Source: Spizellomyces punctatus DAOM BR117 (taxonomy: Eukaryota). From it: 64,000 nt of DNA. Of the stretch, positions 23,703 through 50,029 are shown piece by piece. Below the pieces are notes generated by a model. The model did no database searches, was not told where the DNA came from, and saw only the letters and a list, made by a program, of their open reading frames with translations. The stretch lies in NCBI GenBank assembly GCA_000182565.2, contig KQ257462.1, one strand, 5' to 3'. Every line of letters starts with the position of its first letter. Position 1 is the first letter of the stretch. A program made the translations under genes and the position numbers.

Positions 23703-23900
23703 ACAGTAGATTAGATAGTTTGCTTAGTTTGATTATGCGATATGATTAACCGGATTTGATATTCTTTAATTATTCAATGACATTACATTTCCATCGACAG
23801 GTTGCCTTGAAGTTCTGACGCGACTATGTGGCGCAGCGGCCGAAAAAACGCGACTCGGAAGCAACTCATGCGAGGTTAAACTGGTAGCACTGCGACGACC

Positions 23901-26900: not shown

Positions 26901-27293
26901 GCCAACATGCGGCCAAGCCCTAATGTGTTTGAGAAGCTTATCGTTGCGATGATTGATCAGGGCGATATGGTGACCGCGGAGAAGTTACGCCTGAGTATGG
27001 ACACCATTGGTCGTCATCCTACGTCGGAAACCGAGGCGGCCCTACAAGCAGGGTATCTCAAAAGAGGCGATCTGCTCTCTGCGCGACGGGTATTTGATGG
27101 AATGGCAAATCCAGTTTCGGAAACATCAATACCTCACCCGACGCGAACCAAGGAGTCATACCAGATGATAATAAACGCTGCCATCAAGGCAGGAAGAACG
27201 GATTTAGCGGCAGAGTACGTAGCACAAGCGAAAGGTAGTCCTTATGAGGCAGAATCTCCAGGGTGGGCGGAAAGCTTAGCGCTGGGGGCATAG
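23901..27293 (+). CDS. Pentatricopeptide-repeat (PPR) protein, probably mitochondrial
   Basis: Intronless 1130-aa ORF with an Arg-rich presequence and ~35-aa helical repeats (YAAMLHMHG, YVAVITAYG, YKAFIEALG, YNAVLRIMR, FNVMISGY, YELLITGL). Confidence 0.9.
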   Translation: MIRAGFGRAICHARRLSTIEIRALRHQPATPLLLDNHTLWKRKASTATQEASLAEGKERPLLDADIAQKIDVKADRDVTAEQAVPEEDWQQDNIALSLAETGAEKKVAAEGGKVIDDLLEDCAKDLKVATQRYLHLEESNRTADWTSVQYSHLINRVGNIPSQDLPTTVFDKVRQITRSRSIKLDEKAHLQMVRVYTAADIRRAQRYLAMESELEVERARITGEAPKSVQNRIQRLQKRMEACSSQAHADAAEELMQQAFDEGYRPRPSDYAAMLHMHGTRRNVASVEKWVQLLSERDVEIKLPIYVAVITAYGYLGDAYNAQKWFEKYVSTHGRRAEVYKAFIEALGRVGRAPLARDILERVMPEQKVQPTIDTYTAVSKVLGSSGDFVGAIEILGRMRADSVLAKGIEDAYSVILEQAILKGDYAVASDMFAHLKERRLPNFTYSQYGRLCIEQNHLDEALAVYRKIYSRSGMADPMFSGDLANSLIKAGRKSDAFRLLEIVHSASAKRKASSPGGDGNVFRLVPILMDAAKGDLKMLLRLQEIAESQGYYGSESKSPCGALLAAYQQKKDSVDLSIEDYRILYLSLFSSRKATSKDDLQKASFAFLKDMELKGLKPTEALSDLVISGFKGRYMVGAEIEWKKAMAKLDVKTPEISSEYASFITREEQQSLCRKIVSCCSSGNVAEALQIMEKLQKVNLFPDPFTVSRLILTLGSRGEFETVTQVFTKALERARTLRNLKVREHWEDSAFEAVIIAYTRAGYVSAAAKFFIESVTVLGRHPFAQKTYVWFFDTVGRSRGIANEDYADIYAVFEAYRDLVGAKTISLAVYNAVLRIMRKAGRYEHVVELARLMQEAEITLDPPTYQNLILSLIRSQRIDEAAKLFEKYLDEYWERMDITVFNVMISGYLAHDDFADALRVLKIAESADLRANVETYELLITGLARSEEYAGSALSLVHKMKESGLPVRPQVYESVILGTCSGKTKSLSVALQCYRAMEQANMRPSPNVFEKLIVAMIDQGDMVTAEKLRLSMDTIGRHPTSETEAALQAGYLKRGDLLSARRVFDGMANPVSETSIPHPTRTKESYQMIINAAIKAGRTDLAAEYVAQAKGSPYEAESPGWAESLALGA

Positions 27294-27480: not shown

Positions 27481-30400
27481 TTAATGAGGCGTTCGAATGA
27501 GATATACCAGAACTAGACCATCCACGGTTCCAACGACAATAGACCTTTGGTTGGCGCCAACCGCCAAGGAGGTAGGCTGACTGGCAAGCGGGACCATGGC
27601 ACATACTTCTCCGTTAGCCCTCGCTTGCCTAACAAAGTTCTTGCCATTATGATCAGGCTGACTATCCACCTCTGAAGCCAGCCCAATATCCCAAACCCTC
27701 ATTATGTGATCCGCTGCAATAGTGATAATATATCGGGGATTGTCCATAAAGCTCCATAAGACAATTCGACCTGATTCGTGACGAAGCGAACAATGCCTCC
27801 ATGGTTTATCTAGTCGCATGACAACGATAATGCCGACATCTTGGGAGGATGTGTGATTCACGATATCGCCTTGCTCCTCCATTTCTACAGCAGAGTATGC
27901 GAATAATTTCCCTAGCTTATGCGATCGGCACTCTTGTATCTGTATGTTATCTCCCTCTGAACCACCAGAAGACCAGATTTCGCCATTGACCCACACACTC
28001 GATGCAGAGCAGTAGATAATTTGATGCGAAGCGGACCAGCACAAATCTTGAACACGTTCTCCTTCCCAGGTTTCAAATGTCTGAAGATCGTGCCCGGTAT
28101 GCGGATCTACCATATAAACGCAATTTCCGTTTGCCATGGCTATTCGTGTGCCATCCGGAGAGAATAGGCGGGACGGCAGAGATGTGCAGTGACGCTGAAA
28201 GAGAGGTGTTTGGTGGTATGTTAGTGAACGGTCTGCTCGCCGGAGTAGTTGCCAAGCAGTAAATGTGTCGTGGACTCCCCAAGTGTACAAGCACAGACCA
28301 TGGTGCTCTGTTTTCAGACGGCTGAGGGTAACTCGACGGAGGCGACTTGAGTGTAGAATGCGCAGAGATTCTTTATGATTGTGAAGATCGAAGACAATGC
28401 CTAGATTCCCACAGGCACTTGCTATATAGTTTTCCATCTTTGAAACGTGGACAGAGTTTGGTTGGTCGGGTAACGTGGTTTGAGTAATAGGACGGACCTG
28501 GGTAAAGTTTGCATCGATAGACCAGATGATGTAGGTCTTGTCATTGGAAGATGATATCAAGCTTAAACCGCTATTGGCGCTATTGCCGCGAGTGAAGTCC
28601 AGATGCGAAACAGCCTTTGTGTGATGAGGATCGGACACAGACATGAGTGGCACGATCTTTCCTTCATTCTTCCAACTATGTGTGTTGCACACAAGCAGTT
28701 GGTTTTCACTCGATAAGAGAAACCGTTCCCTTCCCCGAGAGGTGGCGGTACACATGTTCGTTAAGCACGATGCACCTGTATTCACCCGCTTAATCCAGCG
28801 TCCCGTTTCGACCTCTGCGACGGTGATCACACCGAGCGGTGTTCCGCAGAAAAGCAGAGTTTCATCCGCGGAGAAACTGAGGCATTGGATGGGTGTGTCA
28901 GAGGGGGTGTGAATCAATGCGCATCGAGAGTGATTGTCAATTCGCCATATCATGATTCCACCGTCGATGCGCGTTACCGCCAATAAATCTCGCCCGAGGG
29001 AGAATGCTCCTACAGATGTTGCCGACGTAAGTTCCTCGTTGAACCGACATATTTCCCGCATCTTGACCGCGTTGAAGACAATAATGCCTTTATTTCGGCG
29101 CGAATACGTGGCTATCCTATGCCCGTCGATGGAGTGAGCGATAACTGCATCAGAGGTGCCTTTTGTTTGAGTAGGAGGCATATCCGCGTCCAACACACTC
29201 AACACGTCATCTCCACGATCTGATCGAGGTGCAGACTTATTGGGCGCTTCAGCATCGAAGTCGATGCACTCGAGCTGCGTGTGTTCACCGGATTGCCAGA
29301 TGCTCTCAAGACTCTCAGAGAAAAATATGGCCCCTCCCCTATAGGAAGATTCTACGAAGGCAATCATTTTGCCATTTGACAGGTTGTACAAGCAAATGTC
29401 CTTATTGCGTAAGGCAATGGCGACCCTTTCAGCACCATTCAGACTGAAGCAGCACGCAACAGCTGAAGCTGCCGGAAAGGGTGACTGAAGTAGCACTTCG
29501 GTCAACACGTAAGAATCGATGTCCCACGCTTTGACTGTGCCCTCGTCTGTCACGGTCAGGCAGCATCGTCCAATGGCTTTCTGTACTTGTACGGTAACTG
29601 CTATCAGCTTCGTAGCTTCCGTTGCCACTATAATGGACTCAGCATGTGATTCGGAAGGCGTAATACATTCGAGCAGGCTGTCGCCGTGCGCTCTGTTGTT
29701 GCGTGACCGAGCATCCTGTCGCACGCTAGGGCAGGCTCCTTTTGGGAGATTATAGGCCAACGTAAAACACATTTTGGGATATTGGCGAAGATAGTGCCCA
29801 TACGTCTCGACGAACAGGTTGTAGTCACCCAGTCGGGTAATCAGCTCATTGTCGCTCTCCGTCTGGGCTCGCTTGAGAACCTCTGCGATGAAGCCGACAA
29901 CCTCATATCCAACACCTGCAACAAACGCGCTTTCAATGAAACCCAGATTACAAAGTACTCGCGCAGTTTCATGAGGAGAAAATCCAGCCGTTAACTGATG
30001 GTGAACAATATCCACTGCCCGATGAGAGTCATACTTTCGCCACTGCTGCTGTCCAGCGGATACCGTTATGCAGGTAGATGCGTAAAACATTGCAAGAAGG
30101 CGATGCTGATGGGTCACGTCGGCTGAGCTTCTGATATATCGCTTTTTGATGGCCGTCGTGAACTCTTCGTGGAAAGGAATCAAATGCCCCGACTCTGTTT
30201 CGGCAAGAAGATCTTTCAGAGATTCATAAATGAGATTCCAGTCCAAGAATGGGAGTTTCAACAGCTCAATTATTTCGACTTCTCGTAGCCCCGAGCGAGA
30301 ACTGGCGATTGCAGTGAGCGTACCAGCAATGACATCTCGACCATGGATCTGCTCGAATTCGTTCAACATTTGGTCAAACATGGACGCAACGTCAACCGGT

Positions 30401-33400
30401 ATGTCCAGATTTGAGAAAGTGCGGCCAAATTCAGTGCGCTTGATTTTTTTGAGTAGCAATGCAAGATACAATGGCTTGGAAAGATTCATCTTGGCAAGAA
30501 TACTTTGAACCTGCCGGTGTTCCACATCTATGTTCATACGAAGGCATTGCATCCTCAGGATGTCCTTCTGCTCCTGATTAGTCAAACCTCCGAGTTTCCA
30601 GCTTTTCGTGTCAGGATGTCTCTTTCTTAGGGCAGGAAGGACCTTCTCGTCAGCAGCACTGAATAACCAGCGTACTCGCAACAGAGTTTGGTTATCGACA
30701 TCCGCAATGGATGGAAGCCAACTGAAATCATGCTGTTTTTTGCTTCCCAAAATGCTTAGGCGGTCGACCCCGTCCACAATGATAAGCACGTTTGTTCCTA
30801 GCTTGGCGACCTTCTTCAGCTTTGTGGCAAAACCTAATATATTCTGCTCCGAGGTACCGGTCCCAATATCAATCCTTTCTGCCTCCAAGTGTTTTGACAA
30901 TTGTGTTTGAAATCGTCGAAGCATTTGGCTGATGTCAAAGGATCCATACCACGTTCGCACAAAATTTGTCAAAACAAGAAAACCATTCGCTTGAAACTCG
31001 GAGCATATCTTGCCTAGAAGAGTAGTTTTTCCCATGCCGCTTTCGCCATGGAGGAGCAAGGTGTTCTCCATTGGTACCTCGCCCTCTGCCGCTGGATTGT
31101 TGTTTATTGATAGGAAGGCTCGGCGGACATGTTCCAGTACCTCTGATCGTCCAGAAAAATCGGTCAGATTGCTGACGGGAGCAATGGGCAGAGAACTGAA
31201 GTCTCGCAAGTCTATGCATTGTGCGATGTCTTTGGCTACTTGTAAACCCCAGACTTCCAGACCGCCCATTTTGACTCTTCGATCTTCGATCCGGGAGAAA
31301 TAGCTTTGATAAATGTGAACTGGACACCTGGACTCTGAAAGTTGCTGCTTCAGTTTCTCAACCCGTTCTATGGCTCTTGAGTTTTCTGGTTCGTACAGCG
31401 ATCGGAAGCTTTTTGGGACAGAGCGGGTGAAAGCGGCATCGCGGAAATAAAATATGAACGAACTATTCTGGACAGGTAGCTCTAGAGCACAGTCGATTTC
31501 AATTTCCCACAATTTTGAGTGCGCTTGCATCGTGCCCTGAACTTCAAGACTCCTGTCGGGAGAAGAATCGCCGAGTTTCGAGCCAATAATTGATAAGAAG
31601 ATGTCTGCACGTCGAATTTGCCATCTACTTGCTTGAACATAATCACTTTCACTAACACGGGCACTTGGGTGCCCAGCACGGAAATCCACGACGTGTAGCA
31701 GAATATGTTTGCGCAACATTTTATGTTGAAGCTGAGGTAGTATGTTACTGTAAAAATATTCTCGTTCGTTGTAAGTGTCTGGTGTGGAGCACAAGTAGAC
31801 AGTGACGTAGCGGGTAAAGGTGGGTGCACTGCCAGCGGAGGAGGCATGGAAAGAACTTTTCCCCCAATTCAGCTCGCTTAAATGCTCAAGATCGGCGATA
31901 CTGAACGGCTCCGAGGAACACAAGGCAGTCACGCCATGCAAATACAATTCTGAAGGAGAAACTCGCGTACGCAAGGATAGATCAGGTAGGCTATTATCCG
32001 GACTGTCCAGGTGTACGGCAGATGAGTCGCTGATCACCTGCGCAGGCACACTGATTTCATATTCACTCATCATATTGGTCGCTGGGGGTTCACCGGCTCC
32101 AGTAGTCAGGGGTCCTTCATTTTTCACATACAATCGCAATACCAACGGGGGAAGGATTGACGAGCACCCAAGAGCTATAGCTTCAATAGCTTCATTCTGG
32201 ATCCTTACGTTCCTTAACAGTAGATCTGTCAGTATGTACGAGGACTCGGAGAGAGTATCCTTCGCTTGCAGGCAGTTCATTTCGTTAGAGCCCACGTGGA
32301 ATTCTAGACAGCTTTTGACTCTCTCGAGTGGAACCGCATGCGTGTTACAATAACCCATCATGGCAGCATGCACCACTTGTGTCACTGATATGGGTAGCTT
32401 CACGCTGACGAACTGCAGTGGATTCGAGATGGTACATCCTGAGAGGAATTGTGCAGCAATTCCAAGCTCTTGAAAATATGATGAAATCTCGTACTCTAGA
32501 TGTTTGGGTGCCAAACACCATGAGTGGGGTATTCGACGAGCTGTCAGAATTTTCAAAATGTGCCGACTTTCGTACGTATCGCATCCACTAAGGATTGCAT
32601 CTAGCCCTTGTTTCACGCGGCGGAAGACAAGATTGTAGCGCCCCGCTTCTCTCAGTAAGAGTGTCCGTCCATTTTGAACTCTGGAGGCTGACTCATAAAG
32701 ATGGCGAACACTCGGCAGTCTAGGTAAGGTCCTCCAAAATCTTCCTATTTTACTTAGGAAGTCTTTATCCAGCATCGAAAGGGAAGAAAGGGAAGCTTCA
32801 CTGGCGTGTAGCGCAGGGCCGCATGGACAGTCGAGCAGCAGCTGCAGCTTCTCAGATACCCTCTTCCGTAGCCGCTGGCAATTGATCGTGCCTGCGCCGA
32901 TTTTTGAATCTAAGGACTCTTGCGCAGATAGGTGCTGATCATTGTCAAAGCTTTTCTCGAAGTTTTCATAGTTGACCACGTCGAGTTCTGATGGTTTAAC
33001 GTACTCATCCAAAATGGCAAGCACGGACGATCGGACGCTTTCTACGCGCTTCTTCTGATACCTAGGTGCCGCCTCCTTCAGATACACCGACTCCAATAGC
33101 AATGTTTCGGATATAGCCGGTGGTAAACCCCTGTTCCTGGCTTCTGCAATTATCGTGATCGATAGGTCAAAATCTACATCGTTAAAGTAAACGATTTTGG
33201 AGAACATCGTTTCGGGCCTTCTCGCTGTCACCACGAGCCCGACATGTCCATAAATGACGGAATAATATAAACGATCAACAGGGAGAGGTTGCTTGTTGTC
33301 GCGAACTATATAGTGCTTGCAGAAATGCTTTGCGAGGTGCCTGTTGTGAAGATGAGAGTAGTCCCAAATGAATGAGTTCGACCTTGCTCTTACCGAAATG

Positions 33401-36400
33401 ATAGATTTTTCTCGTGAAAGCAAACACGAACAAGGGTTGGCACATCCGCAGGGAGCCTTTCCTGTACAAACGCCGGGCAGAGGAACCACATCCGAAAGCT
33501 GGCAGCAGATTTCTGCACCATGTAAATTATAGCCTTCAATTGGCCAATCCAGTACGCATCGGCGTGAATAACCAGCCAATCTCCGTTTCCCGCAGCGTGA
33601 GAGACCTTGTCTTTCCACTTGTCACCTGCTTGCCATTAGCATACATGCTGCAAACGCAAATGAGATTAAACATACCACGCTTATCTTCTTCTGTCATTAT
33701 AGTTATCTGTATCTGTGTCCCTTCGTAATCTTCACAGCCCTGGACCACCAGACGATGTGTATCGGCCAATTCATCGGTCACAATCAGGACGATGGAATGG
33801 TTCCCTTGCAGACGCATGAACTGATCGCTACTACTGTCTTCTACAAGCAAGCCATAGCTCGTCAACATATTGACAAGGACTGGTTTTAGCATATCCGGAC
33901 GATTAATCCTGCATATTGAGTGTTAGTCACAGCAGTCATACGCCATCTCTACATAACACAGCACATGATGATACGTACAGGGTAGCGACAAATTTCTCCA
34001 TATTAGAGAGCCGACGACTCCAAACGTTGGTAGACGAAGTAGTTTCAAAAAAGTCATATGCAGCGCATTCTGCATTGTGTGTAGCAGTAGTCAGGAATTC
34101 ATGCAAATCTGGCCAGCTGTCCAATTGAGAAAGAATAGTGGTCTGCAACGGTGTTCATAAAATCATTAGCGTCCACTTAATTTGCGACATGTCGCTGGTT
34201 GCATACCGTATTTAACTCTTCTGACTGGTTTTCATTCAAATACACCAAGACCTTTTCGAGAAGATTGACCTCGTTTCGGCTCACTAGACCCCGACGACGA
34301 GCATTCACAGTTGCTAGCACAAAGTGTACCGGTATTCGGTCCTCTTCCCGCAGCATATCATTGACCTTGATCATTAGCTGTAGAGTGAGTGCATTTGCTA
34401 CCTTATTGACCGCGGAATCGCTAAGCGCAGAAACTTTCAGGGTCGAGACTTCATTTCGTAGACAGTCATTGAAAATTTGGGTGAAGACCTGGTCATCGGT
34501 GGCATACAAACTATTGAGTAGCTTTATACGCTTGAACGCAGTATGGAGCTCACACCCGAATGTGGCCAGGCTCATGAATGGTTTATACTGGGGCAAAATA
34601 TCTGACTTGAATGCTTTGTATGCCTCGGTCATCGATTCAACAAGATAACCTTCACGTTGAAATAAAATGATATCGTGCATGAGATCCTCGCTGTCGGTAA
34701 TACTGCAGGTTTCCATCATGGTTATGCATGCGTCGAAAGAACTTTCGCTCGTGTGCTTCTTGGAGGATAGCTTCGCCTCTACGGATCTCAGTAAGAATTA
34801 ATGGTAAACGTGCATAGGTAGAATCAATATTCATTAACTTACGCATGCTTTTCCGCTGCTGACTGAAGCTTGGTGTGGCATTGCTCATGATAAAGTCAAA
34901 GAGTAGGCTTTGGAGGGTCGTCCCACAGTGCGTAAAATTTACGACCTGAAATTTATCGAGCATTGGTTCATTTGCCACGCCAGCATCTGCAAATACGACC
35001 AGCGGAGATCGTTGGGTAATGCTCGTTCGTAACTCCTTCAGCCTCTCCTGCTGAAATTTCAAAATCTCTCTGCCCAACTCCTTGCTAGTAAGGCCTTCTA
35101 TCCAAATTGGCTTCCAGCTTCCCTTTAGCCTGTTTAGCTGTTCTACAAAATCCGGGCGTCGTGCGTCCAAACGATCCGGTTCGCTTCCTTCAGATGTTAG
35201 GTATCCATACTGCTCCAGTATCAGTTTGGCTAAACCATTCGGGTCGATAAGCCATTTGTCACGTTTTGTTGCATGCATCAAGGTCAGATTTTGTCGAACA
35301 ATCTTGACTTTAAAGAGAGCTGAATTGGCTGGCATTCTTGTATCTTTCGTTAGGGGAATATTGGCAGCATGCCCATTGATATGTCGCTTGATGAGATGTC
35401 GCCATACGTCCTCGAGCTCAACCCTTTTTTCATCCGATAACGGGCCGAAATAGGCAAGAAGCCCACTGCGCATGAGCGTATTTGCCAGTAACAATTCTTT
35501 ACGGCTGCCGAGAGCATCAATACGGCTTTGGATTTTCTTTGACAGCTGTTGCAAAGACTTGATGAAGCGATCTTGGAACTGCAAATACTTTCCTGTTTTT
35601 TTGCCATCATGGAAGGCACAGGTGGCTTGGAACATCTCGGCAAGAAGCGTGAAGATGGATTCAGAAGCCCTTGAACGTTCGGTGACTGGGGGGTCCCACA
35701 GATGCAAGGGTTCTCGTACAGTACCAGGAATATTGACATCTACAGTAATAAGAGCTACCCCTCGCAATTGGCTCGGTTGCTTCCGAAATCGTTCTATTGT
35801 CGGATGTAGGAGACCAGCCTTACGAGCGCGAATCATAATCAACTCATGAACCTCTTTAGAGGGAAAGACCAAACCTGTCGCCGCTCGCAAGGCAATAAAT
35901 GCTTTGCGATGCCGAAGAGGTGAATGCTTTGCACCAGCCTGTTTTACTGGTAGGACCACATCCGCGCCGGAGGTTCCGTACTCTGCGAGGTATTCGGAGA
36001 ACGCCCTTTCTGCGGCAATAAACACATCATTGGTGACTTCCAGCTGAATGACGTTGTCCCATTGATTCGCGGATTGCCTTCCGTTTCGACTTAGTTGTAC
36101 ATATTCTGGCAATCGTTTCAGAAAAGCGGTCAACTTAGCATAGGCCCTAGAGGAATAAGGATAAGGGGGTAATTAGGTGGCCTTAAACCGACGCGATCCT
36201 ACTTGATTCCAAGAAGTCCCCCCATATTCGTTTTCACGGAAGACTCGATCAGGTTTATTCGCTTTTCGATTTGGTTTGCCAAAGTGAAATAGAACACTTT
36301 CCAATCCATGTCTTTAGGATAAACAAATGTGACTCCCCATCCGCGGCGATACGACATCCATTTCCAAAACTCTTCATCTGCCAATAAATCCGCCCACTTT

Positions 36401-39400
36401 CGGTTGACAGAGGATCCACGAGCAAGGGTTTTGCAGTCGATGAACGAAAGCACCTTCAATCCCAGCTGGCACGGAAGCTCCCCTACTATATCCACGTATA
36501 GGCGATTAACCTGACGTACAGCTATTGCACGCAAGCATATAAGGTTTTCTCCCTCTAAGCCGCTTTGTATCAAGTCCTTCACCCTCAGGTCGCCGATTTT
36601 GACATTTGCGATTTCTCGCAAGAACAACGTGGGATTCCGCATCACCCACTTCGAAAGTAGGGAGAAGTCCGCATTCCATCCTACGAGTGCGCAACCAACT
36701 TTGATAATTTTCGTCAGCAACGGGTTTGGGTTAGAGGCTGTAAGATGGAGCTTCATTAGGGTGAGATCCGCAATTTCCAGCCGTCGACGAATATCCTGTC
36801 AGATGAATTGGTATTGGTAAATCCCACGATCAGCTGAGAAACGCCGTCGCGGAAGAATTCATGCCTTAATGGTGTTCACAATGACTTCAAATGACCAAAA
36901 CTCTGCTCTTCCCGCGTATGCTGCAGACCATTTCTCGTCAAACACCGCCTTTTTCTGCTTCACAACTTCTTCGGCTTCACGAAGCGAAATCATTATCCGT
37001 TGATGCTTTGCTTTGAAGGAGCGGATTGCAGGAAGTATGTTAGACACCGTTATTGCGGCACGTGAGGCAACAAAAGGCGTAATTGCAGTGGAAGCTGCCA
37101 CGTTTTTATCTGATCATTTGAGATATGCGAGGATGAGTGAGAAAATAGTAGCAAGCAACATACGCGACAAATGCTGATACCGTATAGAACTGGACGATGG
37201 TAACCAAAGGCATTTGTTGGCTGCTTCATTGGAACCGGTAGCGTTTCAATGCTACAAGATCGTAGCTAGGAGAAGGCGTATATAGGTGAAATCACATGAG
37301 ACCTTTAGCCGCAAAGTATAAGATAAGCACCTTGTCGTAAACTACAGTTGGTGTCGAGTGCGCTGGTAGCTGCAATAAATCCAGCAACGAGGCTCTCGCT
37401 TGCAACACGTAGGGATTGTCCGCAGGTTCCAGTAATTCTTCAATATCTTCCATCTTGAGAGACTCGAACAGATCGCGAATCGCTTTCAATTGCTTTTGTC
37501 CTTCTTCAACATCCGACGCCAATCTTTCTCTTAAAGTTTTAAGTTCATATAGCGCCGCCTGATAATCACTGTGAGCAGCGGCGACCTTAGGATTTTCAAA
37601 GACAGGAGTATCATCCTCGCAGTGGAACGCTTGCTGCATCCATTGACTTTCCGAGATGTGATCAGCATGTCCGGGCTCGTGAGCATCGAAGATGCTAGTT
37701 GGAGAGAAGATTTCGTGAAGGAGAGCAATGCGACCAACCAGCTCACGTTTAGTGCTAGCAAGAATGGAATATTGCCGTTGGAGGTTGGCACATTCTCCGG
37801 TAGATTCTATAAGCTTATCGCGAGATTTTGATAGCCGAATGTGAGCATTTGCTGACCCTACGACACGTTTTGCAGTATTCAACCGGCTCTGGGATTGCTC
37901 TTCTTTGATCCGTCGTACCTCACGAGAGGAAGAATAGAGCGTTTGAATCCATGCACATAGCTCGCGTGCAGCAATCCCGACTACCGCACACCGGTCGGGT
38001 CTGAAAGTCGGTTCCTCCATGATTTTCTTGAGTTTATCGAGTACCGCCTCCGGAAGTGTATCGGCCGTCAGAGATGAGATGCGGAATATAAAAGAATGAC
38101 TTGCAATGACTTTTCGGGCTTCCGTCCACGACTGTGGCTTATCGAACAGAATGCAGATGGCGCTGGCAAGAAACTGAACAGGAGGTGGTGGATCTGTCTC
38201 AGCTTTCAATTCCTCAAAAGCATCCTTGCGAAGAGCCTGCAGGCGCCGTATGCTTTGTTCCAAATTCTGCCGTGCAGCGGCTAGGCACGCATCCGCAGCA
38301 TCTTGTTGTTTTTGGCGCCACTGTCGGTCTATGCTTTCTTCGTCGCTCTTTAGTTCCTTTCGCAATTTTTCTACATCCATTTGTTTTTCTTTAAGCTGCT
38401 TCGTGACCACATTTAGTTGTGCCATTGTCGATTCCAGCAATGCTGGGAGATTCTGAAGTTGGCTTCGTGTGTTGTCGACAATCGTTTTCACCACTTCCCG
38501 TGCGTCACCAACTTTTTTCAAACACCGGCGGAACTTCTGATTCTGAGAAATAAGTTCGTTTTTGGTATTCATATAATATTCTGAGACGTGTTCAAGGAAT
38601 TTTTCGTAGCCATTGATCGGCATTGATTTCAAGAAAGGATGTGACCCGCATTGGATTGCATGAATTACCGCGAGGAACATCTGCGCTGTGCATGTGCTTA
38701 GGGATTCGGCAGAGGTGGACTCATCATTAACAGCCTCCAAGAGCCCTGAGTCTGCGAAATAGTTTTGTGCCAGCGTTCGTAGGGATGTTTCATTATAGTC
38801 ATAGTAGATATCGATTGTCAGGCTCGAGATAATTTTGGGATATTCGGCTGTCAAAGCACATCAGTCGAATGGAACAAGTATCGCATGCTATACGAAAAAG
38901 CAAAAATCGCATACCCAGCTGATCCAGGACCATTAGATTTGCCATATCCACGCATACGACTATCTTCAAGTTTGTTAATGTTCTCTCGTTAAGTTCTCTC
39001 TCAACATCCAACGCGCTCAAAGCTTTTCTATTCTCCCCTTTTACCAACCCAAGAACCGCTCCCCGCGATATCTTTCCTCTCTCATCCCGCTCCGTCTGCT
39101 TGGCCTGATGTGCAATTTTGCTCAACATATCGTCGTACTCTCCCGATGTCCATAACTGGACCGATCTGCCGCGATCAAGAAGAGCATTCAGATCCCCCAA
39201 AAAAGTAGGATTGAGCGCGCATTCTGCCGGGAGAAAAATTCCGACAACAATTTTTTGGAGCGAAATGGCGGCGTCGATGATTTGCTTCCGAATGAAGAGG
39301 CGCCAAGTAGGAGTATCAACTGGGCCGATTATATTGTACTCTCGGAATCGATATCCTCGCATTGCAGAGGCTTGTTTTGCGAGGTCTTTTTGCACATCGT

Positions 39401-42400
39401 GGAGACAATGCCCAATTAGGAGCGCACTTGGATATTGATCATCGCCCAAAACCCTGTCCAGCCTACAGAAATGATCGATAGCTCCAGGATACAAGGTAAT
39501 GTCTCTCTTTACGAGTCCTTTTGCATCTCCCTGAGTGGTGAATATAGATATGGCTTCCTTAATAAGTTTCTCGCTGACCCCGCGGTAGGCTGTTCGATCC
39601 ATGTATGCTGCTTGGGTGAGCGATACGGTGGACTGCCTTATTGATGGTGAGAAGCCGAGCGTAAAAATAGATCGGTTTGTGTCGCGTTCATTGGGACGCA
39701 CAGCCATCGTTGTCATATCGGAATACAGATATGACAAGCTGGATGACGGTGCTGTCTGGTGAAAGTATTGCAGACAGACACGACCGACGATATCGTGGTA
39801 TATCGAGGTGTCGCTAGGGCTTATTCGATCCTATGAAAAGGTCATTATAAGCTCACAGGAATGGGCTTCCAGGCAAGGATAATTACTCACCAAATAGACT
39901 CTGTCAACCTCAAAGCACCATGCAGTCATCAGCGACTTGCTACTCATCCACTCTTCCTCACTAATTTTCATCAAGCCCCTTAGAACTTTAGCTGCATCTG
40001 AGGGCACAAAAATCCTTATTCCTGATCGTAGTATTCTCATTTTAATCAAGTGGTGACACCGGAGGGTTGCATCAATGACCATGTCGACTTTGTTCCCACG
40101 ATGATGCATACATTCCAGAAACGATCCTCGCATTTCGCAGTACGCATCCGCATCATGGAACCTGAACACAATAAAATGACGCGCAAGACGATGCGTTGGG
40201 GCTTCCAAATCAGAGCATCCGAGGATCGAGATGCGTCTTACAGCTCTAAAAGTTGTAGCGTTGCTCCAGTATCCACCCATATCCGGAAAGGAGCGCCAAA
40301 ACTCAGCTACCGGAGATGGTGAAGAAGGCCGCGCGGCCATAGGTATATGTAAATCGTCAACAAAAAGGGTCAACGTTTTATTATTGGGGGGAACGTACGC
40401 CGCGGTTGCTTCATCTCTTACAAGGGTTTTATGCAACTGAGCGTGAAATTCCTCTGGAGTGGATGTTGGATGGAGCATGTGTGTATGAATGATAGTCTTC
40501 TGCTCTGGTAGGTTGGCGAGAGTGCGTTCCGCAGCAAAGGTTTTGCCGGCACTCGGGCCACCGGTAAACAGAACGCTTTTGTGGTGCTGAAGGAGCGTAC
40601 TGGCGAGGTTCCTAATGTGGGAAATGACACTATGTGTGGGCGATGGTGTCCATGATCCAGTGACAGTGTTGAACACCAGCAGGAACAGACTGGGACCTTC
40701 GTGATGACTATGGAGTACGGCCCAGAGCTGACTGGAAGATTGGTTGTCTTCCAGCAGTCTATATATAGTGGCTTCAAATCCTTTCCGATGCTCCACATCG
40801 ACGGCCAACCCGAATGACCACACTACAGCGTACCAGAAGGCGTCTTCAATTACTGCTTGACAATCTTTCTCGAGACAAGCTTCCCCTAAGAGACACTGTA
40901 AGATTCCCAGAAAACTACTAACGGATGATTGAAGATCCATTCCCCGGAGACGGCAAATCTCATCCAAAGAGGATACTAATTCCTTCATATAGATGCCAAA
41001 GATAGCCTTTAAAGTGCATTGAAGCGCTGTAGCGAGCGGCGAGAACTTAGGATCTTTCGGTATCTGGTATATCCATTCGGAAACGCAGACCTCCCACGTC
41101 CACTTGGTTTTCACATGCACGAGACTGAATCGCGAAATAAATCCAGCTGAGACGTTATGGATATCTTCGGCTTCCCATATGAGGGTTACATTCTGGGACA
41201 ACATTAGCCTTTTCCCTGTGCTTAAGCACAGTGCGCTTGGGTGCATCAACGAGGCGACCGCCTCGGTCCAGGAGGAGGAGTACGGGCCGTCGAGATGAAT
41301 CCACGCGGGATTAGGGCTTGAAGCGAGATCTTCTAAAATACCTTTTGTGAACCCCGTTTGGGATGGGGATCCAAAGAGAAGAGCCGAGGAAAGTGCAGTT
41401 GGATTGATCGTGTATAATGGCATGGAATTGAAACGAGAAGCTGCGCGGATTGTCGTCGTTTTACCAGTTTGTGGCGCTCCAAGGACGAGAACGTGGGTGC
41501 CTGGTATGGATGTTGCAGTGAGGAGACCGCTGATGGCATTTTTCAGATGCATATGCAAAGGATCACAGTCGGGAGTTACGATATCATTGCGGATATTGCA
41601 AGGGGGGCCTGTGGATATGGCCTCGAAGGTTGATCCAAAAACGGCTCCCAAAACGTCCCTCAATATACCAACTTCTTCTCCGACCGCCTTCAGCAGTCCC
41701 CACTCCCATAAACACTTCGCAACAACTTCGAGCTCAGCAAAATTGTCTCTCATCCGCTCCATATACCGGCAAACAGATATTACACTTCTCACGGATCCCA
41801 TTCGTACGCCCAGCCCCTCGCACCCCCGCCAGAAGGCGGCAACTTTTGCGGCACAGCTTTCTGCATCCTTGAACCCCGCATTCCGTAGCAATACGGCGGT
41901 AACAATTTCAACTCCAGGTAAACGTAATGCAATCGGTACCATCCGATTCCGCACCGTACCCCTAAACAGATCATCGTCCATCTTCTCTGACGTTGCAAAA
42001 CATCTTACATGCACGACCGGCGGTAATTTCATCACTCTTCCCAGAAACGATACAGAAGAAAGTTCCTTTCGTGAGGATGCAGCTGTTAGTTCCCTAACCG
42101 CTTCTAGACCCGCCAAGCAAACGCCCAAAGAATCCTGGCTTAATCTGTCCAATTGCCGGAAGACAAGAAAACATCCTGTCAGGACCATCCCCGTCAACAG
42201 CCTCCGCATGACCGCACTTGAGACTGCCGGAGAACAGCAGCATACGACCGCAAATCGACCAAGAATTTGCGTAAATTCGAGGAGAAGGGTCGTTTTCCCT
42301 GTATCAGGTGGACCGTGCGATAAGATTCCATGATTGGAAATTAATCCAGGCCAGAGGTTAGTGAATGTTCTGGACGAAATACCCAGAGCCACACGGGCAG

Positions 42401-45400
42401 TGGGCGGAATGTATTCGAAGCCGTACGAGGCATGGTAAAGATCTTGAGAGATAGTCACGGTCACTTCGTCTTCGTCGTAGTGATATTTGAGCGCATTCAG
42501 CCATTCCAGCGACGTTTTCATATTTTCCGTTGTGCGTTGGGCATTTAAAAGGCATTGAATCCAGTCACGATGAGATAGGGTAAGGGTCAGAAGAATTTTG
42601 GCTAACTTGTCTGATCGGGTAGTTAGCTTCCTGATTTTGTCCAAGGTTTGCGACAATAGGGTGTCCAATCCGCCTTTGATGCCCAAACTATTTTCAACCT
42701 CGAGCGTCCGTCGTACTTGGTGGGCTAAAACTCGAATTTGTTCAGGAACATCCTCACCGTCCTCGTCGCTATTTTTGTTTCTTAAAACGGTGAATATTAT
42801 CTCCTTGAGAGTGGATTGAATCTGCGTCTCAATCTTGGAAAGCAATTCTTCGATGCTCAGATGGGAAGTGCTGATGAAATTACGAAAAATCAGAGCTTCG
42901 CTTGTCCCGGATGTGGTGGATCGAATGCCGGTTATTTTGTGGTCCTGCGCTGCTGAGGCGGAGGACTGATGGATAAGAGAGGTAAAATAAAAGTATCTAA
43001 CATAACAGGTGGGATATTGTTAGTTCATAGATAGATAACGTTTGGCCCATCTCGTCGTAGGAACGTACTTTGACAAATATCCATTCAACTCTTTGGGTTC
43101 TCTCTTAACCTTAACCAGCTCCAGCAGTTCCTCATCAGCGCCAAAAAACAATCGCGGAAACCCAATCCGCTTTCCATCTAACCACCCTTGAACATCCTCA
43201 ACCAGAGATCCCAGAACGCCCCTCATCTCCGTCAATCCCTCGGCCAGATCTGGCGCAGCGTCCACCAATGCTTTCATTCCCAAGTTCTTCTCAGCCTTTG
43301 CTAGGAGGGCGCGGTAAGTAGTTTCAACGGCTCTATATCGTTTGGTTTCCAATGGAAGCGCCAGCTGAACCTCCGTAGCATTAAAGAAAGAATGGGTCGA
43401 GAGAAGAAGTGGCTGAGTTTTGGACCATTCAGTAAGAGATTTGAGAGCTCTTTGAAGGTCGTTTTGGAGCGCTGTAAATTGGTCAACGTAATGTTCAATT
43501 CCTGGCTCAGATGACCCTTCCAACAGCAGCTCAACCGACAGCAAGTCCGATTCAATAACGCCGATAAGCCTCTCAAAACGGCTGATAACTGACAGGCCCG
43601 TTGCCTCATCCCGCATAATCTGGATGGAAAGCTGGGCAAACCGGTTTTGTATCTCAGAGAGCGTGCTCGAGAGAGACTGTTCTTGCTCTGCTTCTTGGAG
43701 AATTTCCAAGAGGTCTTCATATGTCAGCCCTAGATTTCGCCGTCCGATGGTTTTAGTGACAAGGGAAAGAGGTGTGGTGGTGATGTCAAAATCGGCCAAG
43801 CCCAGAGCGTTGCGAACGGAATCCCAATGCCAACTACGGAATGAATCATAAGTAAGGACTTCCACAATAGGGTATTCCGTCTCAAGAAATGCTGCTATTT
43901 CTTTCGCAGCGTGCTGCGCGATAGGTGGGTGCGCAATGCCCGTTGGTGTAAAAACTTCTAGTAGTTCCGCACAGCGCTTCCGAATCTCGGATGCATGAAT
44001 ATTACAGATTGGCTCATATCGCCAGCGGTCAAGATCTTCTCGATATTGCAGTAAACATGTGACCAAAACTCTACGAATGTGCATTGATGTATGTAGGTTT
44101 TGCAGTTGCGACAGTCGTTGAGTATCATCAATACACGAAGCTTTGCGGATGATGACGGCTGCGATATCAAGCGCATTTACTATGTGCTTGGAGATAGGTG
44201 TGAGAGACTTGAGCGTAATTGTGGTGGGATGATTCTGTGCTCTGGCGTCCTCATGCTCGTCATCTTCCGTCCTATCCTCCTCTTCTTCCTGTTCCTCGTT
44301 ATCCGAACCACTGCTGCTTGTAGCGTCACCGATTGGTGTGGTCAGTACCTTATCCAAAGCAGCCTCCACCTCATCCCACAATTCAACTATCATACACATT
44401 TCCTTCTCCACAACGGCGCTCAGTCGTTCAATGGCTTCACTCACTGCTTGTTTTCTCAATGCAGCAAACTCGGTCAAACGGTCATACATGGTGTAGGCGT
44501 CGTAGAAGCGCGTCACCAACTCATCATCTACAGCCCACTGTCGTTCGTCCAGAAACGATTTGAGTGACTTTACAAAGCTAGTTTGGCCTTGCAGAAGAGG
44601 AAGAGCAGCATCTAGAGACTGCAGAGATACGGACGCAGATTTTGTTTGATCAAAGTTGCCGGGGGGTGGGTGCGTGGTATACGTCGTGTACACATCATGG
44701 ATTTCCTGTACTTTACGGTCCAAGAGTCCTTCCAGATTGGTGAAAATCCTTCGTCGGGTCTTCGAAACCCATTCCTTGATCTCGCTCTGGAAGTTTTCAC
44801 TGAATACAGCAAACATCCCACGCGGAGTTACCTTTGCAAGACCAGCACAGTGTTTCTCAACAATGGATATGTCCCGCAATTGGGCATCGCACTTATTTAA
44901 GATATTTTCGGCCGGGTTGGCGATATCAACATCTAGCACTGACACATGCGAGGCCGAACGAACTCGCGGCAGTATTGCAGCCGACAGCCAGTTCACGAAA
45001 TCACGACATGAGTCAATCCCTTCGTCAATCATTTCAGAGCAAAGCTCCTTCAAGAATACGTGGTCCTCGGGCGTCGGTATGTACGGCCCAGTAGGGAATT
45101 TGCATGAAATTGGGGTGAGCATGCAGGACAATGATTTGTTGAGAGCAGATTTCCACGATTCAAAGTCAGTGCTGAAAGTAATACTATAGTCGGCGTTCCA
45201 GTCAAAGATGAGGTCAACTCGGATGCGTATGGCCCCTTGATGGAACGACTTATATATATCGGTTATCTTTGTTCGGAAGATGGGCATAATGGTCGATTTT
45301 GCGATGACAGCGACAAAGAATTTGAGAAGGGAGCGGGCAGTCTCAGCATCTTGTGCCTCCATAGTTGATAACATCGTTTCCGCTGAGTCCCTGGGTTCTA

Positions 45401-47687
45401 CCTGATGCGCTCGAAAAGCCGTAGTTACCGCTGCTGATAGTACATTACCAATGTGCTCCGAAACAGTTTGTACGAATTCCCCATGTATGTGTGCGCATGC
45501 TTCAACAAATTCTTTGGGGGTAAAGAAGATACACCTCGTGTTGAGATCCTCAGAATCGTACGGGATTTCTCCACGTCGCAGGACATCACTAATACCATCC
45601 TTCAATAATCTCTGACACTCGTTTCGCAAGCAGAACACGGCATCGGTGCATTTCTGCCGATAAAACTCAATGCGCGGATATAGCAGTGCTGCTAAACGTG
45701 CTACTTGACCTTTCACGGAGGACGTGACGCGGATCCGCTCATCTTGCCAGTGTAATTCTGAGAGTGTTGGAATAGTGAGGGGCTGAGGAAGGAACCTTTG
45801 CAAGTGACCGCTACAAAGAAGGGCAGCTTCGATCTGAGATCTTGTGTAATCATTCTGAATTTCGGCCCTAAGATTAATGAGAACCTCCGGTGCAAATGTA
45901 AGAGATTCATCTTCCTCTTCTTCGGTCTCCCCGGCGTGATCCCCCTTGCCAATGGTAGTACCACATATGAACTTGGTCCACTGTCTTCTTTCTTTCCTTC
46001 TCTTCCTTAGCTCATCAGCTAGTAATCGCTCAGACGCCCTCACTGGCGCATTGGCTATATAATCTTTCAGAAAGGGCCGTGCGATTGCAACACATTGGCG
46101 AAGCGCAAGACGATATTCAAACTCAACACGGATGGCATGGGCATGTAAAAGTTTCTGATGGTGGGCATTTGGCGTTTCGTGAGGTAGCAGGATGTCGGCA
46201 CGAGTAAGTTGCGTTGGCGGATTGCGGCGTTCTGGAAGGGGTTCTTCCCATTTGATAGTATATCTGTTGTCAGTCGGATCATAGGAGAGGACAGTACATG
46301 GATGCCAGGCAATGGCAGGCGCCAATGCAGGGTCGGGCGTATCAGGGCCACTTGGAGCTTGAATACCTGGAGCTCGGCCCTTGGTGCGGACACCGGCTTT
46401 GTCCAATTGGGTCGAGAGAGGATCAACTAGTTGCTGCTGAGCGTCTTCGTGGTCCATAAAGAAATCTATTGGGAACGTGTGTCCAAGACGTCTCCCAGGC
46501 CTAGAAATGGGGCGGTCGGGGAGTGATGTATAATGCCGGTCGATATCCTTCTGTTCTGTCAACAGAATCGAAGGTATGTGAGGCACTTCGTCGCCCAGCC
46601 ATTGTATTACATCTGCAGGAGTAGGTCTACCATCGTTGATGTGCTCCTCCTCCCTCTCTTCCCCTCTCATTTTTGGCATACTGACACCTCGATACCCTTC
46701 CATTCTTGCCTCTATTCTAGATGGCGACGGAGTCAGCCGTTTAGAAAATCGTCCAAGTTTAGGCAGCGGGTATTGTTTCGCAATATGACTGACCATGACA
46801 TGCCCATCCTCTTCATCAAAGTAGTAAGATGGAATGCGATGGAGCCCAAGCTGAGGTGGTAGGCGAACGTATACTTTCGGGCCCGCCGTGCCACCAGTAG
46901 TACCGATGGGGACCAGAGCATGGTCTGCGGCAGGTGCCAGATGCCTGTCTGAATGCTGTACAGTTGCTGGATCCGGAACTACCGATGGTGCAGTCCATGC
47001 AGTCCGAAAGATATCCGCTATTACTTTAAAGAACAAGGATTTTGTCTCTCTGGAGAGAGGCCGGCTCTTTCTTGGCAAGAAGAGATCATCAAGAGGTTCG
47101 CCGCCCATCATTGTAGCTCGACGAGCAGAGATAATTCTTCGGCCCCTGTCGCCATGGAGAACAGATTCCGCTGATGCGGAACCCAATCGGCGACCCGTGG
47201 CTGCAGAGGGCGGTCTGAGAAAAACCAGCTCATCCAGTTCTCGAAATGCGTTTAATCTTGTTTTCTGTTCCTGAGATAGATCAGCGGTACGTGGGCGAAT
47301 GATCCGATTTGATGAGGAAGGAGTCGCAAAGCAATCCGATGTCAAATCATCGGATTCGTCAATGAGATGGATAGGAGGTCCATAGTGGACATTGGACGTC
47401 AGGTCAAACGAGACTTTTGATGATCTTTGGGGATAGTCAAACCTCCCTTTACCCAAACCACGCTCTTTTCCAAAAAAGAGCTCCAGAAAGCGTTCTTCTG
47501 CTTGCTCCCAGCGGGATCCTGCTTCATCATCATTTTGGGTTTGATTTTGTTCATCGCCTGAAACTGATTGGATCTTTGTATATGGCGGCTGCAAGGTATT
47601 GATGTCGTCCTTATTAAAATCATCCATAGGAAGAGAATCATGCTTCCTTTCTGGCTCACTGAGGCAAGCCCCATCAGGAGGTTGCAT
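27481..47687 (-). CDS. Giant (~6,480 aa) fusion: degenerate axonemal-type dynein heavy chain with an internal F-box, followed by a DUF4062-like domain, NACHT NTPase and WD40 repeats
   Basis: 13 exons: 47687-43069, 42996-39891, 39830-38915, 38847-37331, 37265-37181, 37109-36865, 36795-36203, 36146-34843, 34778-34207, 34142-33979, 33908-33676, 33625-33394, 33340-27481. They total 19,446 nt (divisible by 3) and the junctions are phase-compatible. Dynein motifs: KRIGFPRLFF, YGFEYI, GPPDTGKT, WIHLDGP, FVDDLHIP, EVDRVYLDRI, PPPPV, WLIDPNG, GDWLVI..FRMWF. NACHT motifs: GESGMGKT and IIVDGVD. Confidence 0.8.
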
Positions 47688-48683
47688 ATTCTGTTATCCA
47701 GAGTCGCGATCCTTCCCTCCGCTTGCTGACTTTGCAAAACGCGTTCGCCTTGTGAGTCAGTCCAAGCCACTCACATGTGATGTGGCAAAGGCAAAAAGAA
47801 CCTTTAGCGCGTTTCTCCAAGAAATACGCTGTTAAGAATCGAACCCTCGAAATGATGACAAAGCAGCAAAGATCAGCGATAATGCAAGGGACACCATCGC
47901 ATGTCTTCCATCCCATGTTGATGATCTTGTTTATCAGTTAGAGATGGACGATTATTATCTTGGGGCTAGCTGCGAAAACTTTGAACTCGTCCACGATCTT
48001 GCCTGTAACGGGATCTCTTTGGCACGCTGCAGCAAGGAGAAAAGCACGACAAGGATGACGGCATTTGCCTATCTCTTGGCTTTGCCTCCTTTCAACCCCC
48101 CAGCTCCAACATTCCACGGGGTGATCGGTGTCCCTGAGTGGTCTCCGGCCCTGATCTCAACGCGCAGCATCTGCTGTGATGCTACATAGCCTCTTTCGGC
48201 AATCCCAATGCGCGAACAGTCCGCGCTGTCAAGGAGGATTACGTTTCCACCATGCTGATAGGAGAGATGGCAAATACAATGCCTCCGTGGTCAGCATCAT
48301 TTTTATACATCTAGCCAGCAAGAATGGAGAATTTGTGAAAGAGGTGTGGGGAACACACTATCCAATCAGGACGGATCAAGATTGTAGATCCATGTGCGGA
48401 CACTGAAAACATGGTCGTTGATTAGAAGGCAAGGGTGCTTGATCTTGCAAATACTTGATCAAGTGGTATTACCAGCGAGTCCAGCACAAATTATACATCT
48501 TCCAAAAACACTTGGAATGTCCAATCGTTATATATGGCCCTGAAGAATGCTATGGGCCACGGGTGGGGATATAAATAACCCAACAAATTCAATCCCCCAT
48601 TTATCAGCCAGAAATAGCTTCTTCAAAGTTATTGCAAGTAGTTCTGAACCTCATCCTCCCCATTCCTTTGCCGTGTTCTCGCC

Positions 48684-49866
48684 ATGCATCTCCTCTCGTC
48701 CATCGCGCCAATCTTCCTACTTGCCACATTAGCATCGGCAAAGCCGGTACCGCGATCGGACCAAGTCGTTCGGTGTACCCTCACCTCCGATGCGCAGATC
48801 GCCCACATAAAGGCATCTCACCTTGATGTCTGGTCCCACAGCCTTGGTCTCAACCACCCTGCAGACATTCGGGTTTCTGCTACCGAAAGAGCCCAACTGG
48901 AGGCCACAGGGGCAAAATGTGATGTCTTTATCGACGATCTTGCTCCTCTTCTTGAAGCAGAACAGCAACCTCATCTGGCAATTCGACAAGGACCAAGTGC
49001 GCTGGCCGCTGACCCGTACTTCTCAAGCTATAAGCCTTACTCTCAGATCGTCGACAAAGTCAAAGCATGGGCGCAAGCTTATCCTGACCGCGTCAAGTAC
49101 TTGGGCAGCATCGGCGCGTCAACAGAGGGTAGAGAAATTCCCGCGTTCAAGATTACGAATAACAAGATTCCAAGTTCTTCCAAAAAGAGCATCTACTTCA
49201 ACGGAGGAATCCACGCCCGCGAATGGATTTCCTCCGCGACGGTGATGTACGTTGCCAATGCGCTCATCACATCCACTGACCCCCAGCTCTCCGACTTCCT
49301 CGACAAGGTCGAGTTTTACATCACCCCGATATCTAACCCAGACGGATACGAATATAGCCGTACGCAGGACAGGTATTGGCGGAAGAACAGAGGCAGCAAC
49401 TCGAACTCAAACTGCGTAGGTGTGGATCTCAATCGTAACTGGGACGAACATTTCGGAGTTGTGGGCGTAGATTCCAACCCATGTTCCGAAACTTACAATG
49501 GTCCATCTGCGTTCTCGGAACCGGAAACCAAAGCTCTCTCCAAATTTATCCTCTCACTTCCCAACCGTATCGCTGGAATTGACTGGCATTCATATGGCCA
49601 GTACATCCTCCGTCCATGGGGATGGACAACAACAAAGAGCAAGAATGAAGCCCTCTACAAGGCCCTCGGTGATGGTGTTCGTGACGCTATCGCAACGTTC
49701 AACGGAAACCGATATAGCTCAATCACCGGAGCAGAACTGTATCCTGCTTCAGGGGCCACGGATGACTGGATGACCGCCAAAGCTAAAATGACCGGTTTTA
49801 CGATCGAGTTGAGAGACACGGGTCGGTATGGCTTTCTCCTGCCAGCCAGCCAGATTGTCCAACCGA
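48684..49866 (+). CDS. Secreted zinc metallocarboxypeptidase (M14A), 3' end lost in an assembly gap
   Basis: Signal peptide and prodomain, then GGIHAREW (HxxE), WRKNR, GVDLNRNW, DWHSYGQ, LYPASG and TIELR. No introns in the visible part. Confidence 0.95.
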
Positions 49867-49966
49867 NNNNNNNNNNNNNNNNNNNNNNNNNNNNNNNNNN
49901 NNNNNNNNNNNNNNNNNNNNNNNNNNNNNNNNNNNNNNNNNNNNNNNNNNNNNNNNNNNNNNNNNN
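49867..49966. other. Assembly gap (100 N)
   Basis: Run of N; 100 is a common placeholder for a gap of unknown size. Confidence 0.99.
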
Positions 49967-50029
49967 GCAGTCAAGATTTGTGACTATGTATGAAGACGAG
50001 CATCCCTCCTGCCGTTTGAGATAGACTCT

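Follow-up and report, generated by a model that had tools for sequence, protein, structure and literature searches.

Can a dynein heavy chain whose main ATPase site has lost its catalytic residues still be a motor? The question is raised by a gene on the minus strand of a 64,000-nucleotide (nt) stretch of DNA from Spizellomyces punctatus DAOM BR117 (GenBank assembly GCA_000182565.2, contig KQ257462.1; 'the window' below denotes this whole stretch), which encodes a dynein heavy chain of 6,481 amino acids (aa) belonging to the chytrid class 10 of Kollmar (DHC10; PMC5100056). AAA1 is the main hydrolysis site of dynein (PMC7215579). An initial annotation of the window had proposed that the dynein ring is a pseudo-motor, with Walker B of AAA1 lost and the P-loop of AAA4 destroyed. 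Comparison of sequences across the family leads us to the same view, and we put the probability that the class-10 dynein of chytrids is a non-motile pseudo-motor at roughly 0.9.

Nucleotide sites of the ring

The sites on which this view depends are as follows (all on the minus strand).

41586..42428 (-), AAA1 (alignments to solved dyneins, AlphaFold model, family comparison)
42291-42314 (-), AAA1 Walker A GPPDTGKT, kept (in-frame reading)
42153-42170 (-), AAA1 Walker B FLVFRQ (followed by LDRL), Asp to R1820 and Glu to Q1821 (in-frame reading and alignment)
~41982-41999 (-), AAA1 sensor-I Asn, lost (family alignment)
41787-41789 (-), AAA1 sensor II, probably R1943 (one of two alignment registers)
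40626..41585 (-), AAA2, P-loop and Arg finger kept
41457-41480 (-), AAA2 P-loop GAPQTGKT (in-frame reading)
41130-41132 (-), Arg finger R2162 (AAA2, to AAA1), kept (family alignment)
39576..40625 (-), AAA3, P-loop and axonemal-type DD Walker B kept
40539-40562 (-), AAA3 P-loop GGPSAGKT (in-frame reading)
40347-40364 (-), AAA3 Walker B FVDDLH, continuing as FVDDLHIP (in-frame reading)
38609..39575 (-), AAA4 (PF12780, E-value (E) 1.4e-10)
39387-39425 (-), AAA4 P-loop, destroyed, ALLIGHCLHDVQK (in-frame reading)

All of these motifs lie in frame, as the initial annotation had described them. In HMMER alignments the RQ of FLVFRQLDRL falls on the DE of dyneins, ungapped, in 4/4 solved dyneins shown, and both acidic residues are thus replaced. 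In the AlphaFold model of AAA1-3 (predicted local distance difference test (pLDDT) 87, predicted template-modelling score (pTM) 0.83; TM ~0.8 to dynein motors), FLVFR forms the Walker B strand, so there is no shifted DE in AAA1; neither the alignments nor the model gave an intact DE elsewhere in AAA1, the finding that would have spoken against the annotation. The DE pair is kept in 237 of the 254 non-family proteins covering the site, compared with 0/16 family rows, and the 17 non-family proteins without it include P0183, later assigned to the family, and two alignment gaps. In this genome 13 dynein loci were located, a number that is a lower bound, and 11 of them keep FDEFNR.

Among class-10 lineages, counted without the near-duplicates P0121, P0271 and P0275 and without P0130 and P0276, which do not have AAA1, the Walker A Lys is kept in 13/15, the Walker B Asp in 2/15 and the Walker B Glu in 0/15, while the sensor-I Asn is kept in 1/13, the sensor II Arg in 11/15 and the Arg finger in 6/12. 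The canonical set of this comparison was picked by its FDE motif (119/167 kept), and the non-circular count is 237/254. Replacements at Walker B are mutually unrelated from lineage to lineage (Q, N, F, H, K, Y), and Walker A itself is absent in P0131 and P0135; with these counts of Walker A Lys and Arg finger, nucleotide binding at AAA1 does not appear to be family-wide. The window protein keeps K1774/T1775 of Walker A, R2162 and probably R1943, the helix-cap pattern favouring Arg at sensor II (Gly stands there in the other register), and the water-activating residues are lost. The suggestion that the protein may bind nucleotide and yet be non-motile is therefore in keeping with its sequence. 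In yeast dynein, the change of Glu to Gln in AAA1 (E1849Q) alone inactivates the motor with nucleotide retained (10.1101/2020.09.22.308700); the window protein has the same change at Walker B, and in addition Asp to Arg and the loss of the sensor-I Asn.

AAA2 never hydrolyses ATP (10.1101/2020.09.22.308700). At AAA3, a Walker B with DD is what dyneins normally have (9/9 canonical rows tabulated), so AAA3 does not provide a spare catalytic site. At AAA4, GxxGxGK/R is missing in 12/12 family rows covering it. By alignment and model, AAA1 is without its hydrolytic residues and AAA4 is predicted to be unable to bind nucleotide. Because the AAA1 residues are lost, AAA2 is non-hydrolysing, AAA3 has DD and the AAA4 P-loop is gone, no catalytic site would be left in the ring, and from dynein biochemistry we infer that no site is able to drive the power stroke.

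Gene model and class

27481..47687 (-), class-10 dynein heavy chain, entire gene (13 exons, 6,481 aa)

The spliced model, guided by the closest relative P0121, has no internal stop and 12 introns of 50-72 nt, 11 GT-AG and one GC-AG; P0121 and P0273 both support the latter (36796-36864). The model is identical in every letter to the public protein P0273, whose source labels are 'uncharacterized' or 'F-box domain-containing', and its identity to P0121 is 91% end to end. When 1.84 billion representatives were scanned in full with HMMER, 15 relatives (P0121-P0135) scored above ordinary dyneins. Thirteen relatives were looked up, eight of them are named and all eight are chytrids: Spizellomyces, Phlyctochytrium arcticum, Borealophlyctis, Nowakowskiella, Gorgonomyces, Clydaea (in a cluster with Lobulomyces), Rhizophlyctis and Homolaphlyctis. 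Several are annotated as one protein of 6,100-6,800 aa that matches the window gene from the tail to the WD40 end, and the same architecture is found in one annotated protein each for P0121, P0122, P0123, P0125, P0129 and P0271. A quick tree with long branches unites the 15 family rows in a single clade (SH-aLRT 99) that spans five chytrid orders. Word-indexed protein searches overlooked most orthologues; in the one with aa 1,536-4,385, the 120 matches listed of 144 were all ordinary dyneins with 19-24% identity.

Kollmar described class 10 in 2016 as a dynein of Chytridiomycota and Neocallimastigomycota of ~6,500 aa, with a unique region near AAA5 and a ~1,500-aa WD40 tail, and stated that hydrolysis sites were not analysed (PMC5100056). 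The window family shares this chytrid restriction and forms its own clade; it has an insert of ~610 aa before AAA5, where the long unique region is expected, and a WD40-bearing C-terminal tail at aa ~4920-6481, and the gene spans 20,204 bp, the very figure given for a class-10 gene in his Fig. S5. The two descriptions may differ in the layout of exons: Kollmar placed AAA5 to the C-terminus in one exon, and here five introns fall in AAA5-6 as aligned by us and the last exon (5,860 nt) begins inside AAA6 and spans the fusion point. A further difference is that AAA5, buttress and AAA6 can be aligned here after the insert. The words 'F-box', 'NACHT' and 'Walker' were not found in the supplement text searched, and the main text of a 2026 fungal flagellum atlas (PMC13358043), in its available part, is without DNHD1, Kollmar or F-box. 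In the literature searched we found no report on class-10 active sites or on a STAND fusion, although one might exist in subscription papers or in supplements that are closed. The class-10 identity, the F-box insert and the TIR-like/NACHT/WD40 tail had been missed by the initial annotation.

Selection on the gene

A contig of a relative differs from the gene by 830 letters over 11,021 nt, and the changes listed for it give the P0121 residue at 10/10 codons checked. The ratio of nonsynonymous to synonymous substitution rates (dN/dS) is ~0.16-0.31, with 277 amino-acid differences taken from P0121; this is a bounded estimate and not a codon fit, the total of differences coming from the relative's contig, where 40 of 857 were listed individually. 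Among the 12 indels listed of 16, the five uncompensated frame-breaking ones are all intronic. The identity of AAA1 to four distant orthologues is 26-45%, and canonical AAA1 of this genome has 84-90% identity to that of four other zoosporic fungi. Compared with P0121, insert, stalk, linker and NACHT are 93-95% identical and AAA1-3 87-91%. Of 94 canonical-invariant columns, 33 are kept at >=70%, including structural Gly, Trp, Cys and Pro. Constraint on the ring thus appears relaxed, yet present. By these values the gene is not a pseudogene: the loss is family-wide and under purifying selection as estimated here, and the fold is predicted to be intact.

Tail, stalk and class-specific insert

44118..47687 (-), N-terminal tail, single-headed inner-arm type, aa 1-1190 (family tail hidden Markov model, HMM)
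42456..44117 (-), linker DHC_N2 (PF08393, E 2e-37)
37685..38506 (-), stalk coiled coil (HHalign 99.9%)
37913-38278 (-), microtubule-binding domain (MTBD), intact (HHalign and fold search)
35600..37684 (-), class-specific insert of ~610 aa at the base of CC2 (family alignment)
36997-37531 and 36562-36780 (-), two weak MTBD-like repeats (HHalign, helix pattern in model)
36349..36489 (-), F-box within the insert (PF12937, E 1.6e-7, over the cut-off)
32182..35599 (-), CC2 end, AAA5 with buttress, AAA6 and C-sequence, very divergent (HHalign)

Linker, six-AAA ring, stalk with MTBD and buttress are all present, as in the architecture of an active motor, and ring, stalk and MTBD are predicted by modelling still to fold. 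The stalk model matches 5ayh with Z 17.3 (root-mean-square deviation (rmsd) 10.3, 250 aligned) and 6l4p with Z 14.1 (rmsd 2.1, 121 aligned). From AAA5 to the C-sequence, the family aligns with canonical dyneins at an HHalign probability of 99.9% over 980 columns, and PF18199 is matched in the orthologue P0276 (E 7e-19). The tail gave no PDB sequence match; its HMM matches dyneins whose best named relatives are single-headed inner-arm chains.

The insert is well conserved within the family alignment. Its two MTBD-like repeats have HHalign P values of 0.0013 and 0.0014 (probability 17-19%), compared with 0.045-0.44 in 10 control windows. A plain HMM for these repeats reached at best an independent E-value of 0.011 (in P0132) and matched nothing in the window protein; the fold search did not confirm them, its matches being filled by the first stalk, and Atlas gave nothing usable. 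In the insert model, pLDDT is <50 for the F-box and for a part of repeat 2. The F-box is found in P0132 too (E 2.9e-8), is conserved in the family alignment, and scores above the Pfam threshold in two orders.

F-box proteins pair with Skp1. This genome has two Skp1 loci (G000:C6 ~1160 kb and C21 ~236 kb; L034-L037), both with an intron in the binding region, and its F-box paralogues of the window segment are only distant. In a relative (run X10), short separate loose-ended contigs, additional to its main contig, match window positions 36152-36642, the F-box region, which suggests that the relative has this segment twice.

C-terminal TIR-like, NACHT and WD40 module

31207..31809 (-), TEP1-type DUF4062 / TeTIR / NIR domain, TIR-like NADase fold (PDB 11gz (TEP1), E 6e-14)
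31498-31500 (-), E5143, counterpart of TEP1 catalytic E1008 (alignment to PDB 11gz)
30556..31068 (-), NACHT NTPase (PF05729, E 5.8e-8)
31024-31047 (-), NACHT Walker A GESGMGKT, kept, with Walker B IIVDGVD kept too
27484..29589 (-), WD40 beta-propeller region (several Pfam propeller matches, best E 2.7e-19, below family cut-offs)

The DUF4062-NACHT-WD40 series follows the dynein C-sequence and shares the 5,860-nt exon with it. TEP1, NWD1, NWD2 and NPHP3 (STAND) have this DUF4062-NACHT-WD40/TPR order and share the catalytic Glu and the NACHT Walker motifs, but in TEP1-type proteins the module is N-terminal or TROVE-linked, whereas here it is fused behind a dynein. The Pfam match to DUF4062 has an E of only 0.0075, under the cut-off. 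Within the family, few parts are better conserved than the TIR-like domain (29-41% to distant orthologues), and the NACHT Walker A Lys is kept in 7/7 rows.

DUF4062 has been described as a TIR-like NADase, and F902, R914, R942, C959 and R976 as needed for TEP1 activity, the mutants being nearly inactive (bioRxiv 10.64898/2026.05.01.722283, 2026.09.04.749371 and 2026.09.21.753143). With the preprint numbering applied to the alignment with PDB 11gz, the window protein keeps the equivalents of E1008, S905, R914 and R942, has Tyr for F902, Ser for C959 and Lys for R976, and is also changed at W943. In family rows, the catalytic Glu is kept in 6/7 (the seventh is alignment-dependent), R914 in 5/7, R942 in 3/7, and C959, R976 (Lys in 5) and F902 (Tyr in 6) in 0/7. 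Two stand-alone homologues keep all of the TEP1-required residues compared. Because residues needed in TEP1 are altered here, NADase activity of this domain is possible but doubtful.

Further word-indexed protein searches found three proteins in one case and, in another, one orthologue half and two stand-alone DUF4062-NACHT-TPR proteins (22%); these few proteins do not point to a donor of the tail, and the genome search gave no stand-alone copy of the DUF4062-NACHT-WD40 tail in this genome. The word 'dynein' occurs 0 times in the main texts, as available, of the three DUF4062 preprints, and nothing came from a word search for a DUF4062/NADase link.

Other dyneins with degenerate AAA1 sites

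DNAHX of sea-urchin sperm (PMC11785096) resembles the window protein in a degenerate AAA1, an intact fold and insertions in the stalk region. By cryo-electron microscopy, DNAHX is non-motile with ATP trapped; the window protein may likewise hold nucleotide. DNAHX is outer-arm derived, restricted to animals and keeps Walker B, whereas the class-10 protein has lost it; its stalk insertions are reported to disrupt microtubule binding, whereas the MTBD here is intact by sequence and model; and no F-box or STAND tail is described for it in the text available. The terms 'fung' and 'chytrid' were not found in the available text of that paper. DNHD1, to which the initial annotation likened the protein, has also lost the AAA1 Walker B residues that serve in catalysis (PMC11785096). 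It is metazoan and needed for flagellar assembly. We regard it as an analogue; Kollmar puts DNHD1 in a separate class, class 11.

A second dead-looking dynein is encoded in the same genome (G000:C12 ~885-900 kb, + strand; L016, L017, L023-L024), with PVLTGSG at AAA1 Walker A, CLEHLDRL at Walker B, changes of sensor II and Arg finger, loss of the AAA4 P-loop, and AAA2 and AAA3 P-loops kept. It is possibly Kollmar's class 17. Since it has the same AAA1/AAA4 pattern, conversion to a pseudo-motor may recur. DE is missing at AAA1 in further non-class-10 dyneins (P0174, P0191, P0203, P0204, P0207, P0231, P0247, P0253, P0255, P0259, P0083 and P0150), which fall at several places of the tree, a hint that pseudo-dyneins have arisen more than once.

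DISCUSSION

If the class-10 dynein is a pseudo-motor, what is it for? We regard it as an even chance that it is a scaffold docked on microtubules within the flagellar apparatus of the zoospore, bringing ubiquitin-ligase or switch functions to the axoneme. In such a scheme, the inner-arm-type tail would dock the protein on the axoneme at an inner-arm-like site, and the fixed ring and MTBD would hold it on microtubules. Nucleotide at AAA2 (here also at AAA1 and AAA3) would be a structural ligand, the ring being fixed in one state as in DNAHX. The F-box would recruit Skp1/cullin, and NACHT-WD40 would act as a switch for the recognition of substrate or signal. The task of the protein would then most likely be to remodel the axoneme locally by way of ubiquitin, for instance when the axoneme is disposed of once the zoospore has encysted. 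In chytrids the axoneme is taken into the cell, and the proteasome contributes to its breakdown (PMC11772885, citing Venard 2020).

Several observations weigh against this reading or its parts. A role in axoneme disposal is suggested only by the agreement of the parts with known biology. The F-box is shortened in P0123 and missing in P0129 (possibly gaps in gene models), and lies >2,000 residues from the WD40 region. Matches for the class of the tail are weak (best E 6e-10), and the register at sensor II is ambiguous, with R1943 in one alignment and Gly in the other. One RNA run gave 226 reads across 20 kb, none of which crossed a splice joint; this is no evidence either way.

The same parts could have been kept as folds alone, with ring, F-box, TIR-like domain and NACHT forming a purely structural tether or spacer that holds a chytrid-specific flagellar structure and has no ligase or signalling output. 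We treat this as a tentative possibility: ring and TIR-like domain alike have degenerate catalytic residues, an intact MTBD with two MTBD-like repeats could cross-link microtubules, and DNAHX is a precedent, but the conservation of the NACHT Walker A Lys and of the TIR-like Glu, and an F-box that passes the Pfam cut-off in two orders, argue against it. That the protein is instead an NLR-like switch, in which WD40 senses a cue, NACHT swaps nucleotide and the TIR-like domain cleaves NAD+ as SARM1 does, leading to destruction of the flagellum or defensive cell death with the dead motor as anchor, is unlikely. The domain order is that of TEP1, described as an active NADase, the TIR-like domain is well conserved, and equivalents of E1008, S905, R914 and R942 are retained in the window protein; however, essential TEP1 residues have changed in the family while two stand-alone homologues keep them, and full-length NWD1, NWD2 and NPHP3 were inactive in one study. 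Distinctly unlikely, in our judgement, is a combination of the two outputs, in which an inner-arm dynein has turned into an axoneme-anchored self-destruct switch: WD40-NACHT would sense a cue at encystment or damage, NAD+ cleavage by the TIR-like domain together with the F-box would trigger axoneme destruction, and the dead ring with up to three MTBDs would be the anchor.

A slow or atypical motor that still hydrolyses ATP, by a relocated base or at AAA3, would fit with the retention of linker, Walker A, Arg finger, buttress, stalk and MTBD. We consider it highly improbable, as the residues at the Walker B columns offer no conserved substitute, two relatives have lost AAA1 Walker A, and AAA3 has DD. 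Very long branches and the scarcity of RNA reads might recall a decaying duplicate, but the coding sequence runs uninterrupted for 19.4 kb, dN/dS is ~0.2, the uncompensated frame-breaking indels among those listed lie in introns and the family is one clade across five chytrid orders; since selection acts on the gene, decay is already refuted and retains almost no probability. The reading of a conserved, non-motile class-10 dynein with scaffold functions is the one we prefer.

Two neighbouring genes were observed in the window. A gene resembling pentatricopeptide-repeat (PPR) genes in its translation (23880-27293, +) converges on the 3' end of the dynein gene. RNA reads lie mostly at this 3' end and are oriented like the neighbouring gene, and contigs X1 and X2 cross introns. 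Because most reads there fit the strand of the PPR-like gene, its 3' untranslated region may overlap the last codons of the dynein (27481-28147). Farther away, an open reading frame for a secreted protein (48648-50024, +), broken by a run of N near 49870-49970, has a GGIHAREW motif, which we take to mark it as zinc-carboxypeptidase-like.

Non-motile dyneins were already known in animals; this case adds a pseudo-dynein from a fungus that carries an F-box as well as TIR-like/NACHT/WD40 modules. A dynein class known since 2016, whose active sites had never been examined, now has a testable pseudo-motor status outside animals, and its unexplained regions can be named: an insert with an F-box, and a TIR-like/NACHT/WD40 module of TEP1 type. 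The chassis of a cytoskeletal motor would thereby be tied to ubiquitin and NLR-type machinery, and the class-10 dynein becomes a candidate player in the still unexplained breakdown of the chytrid axoneme, which takes place within a short time of encystment.

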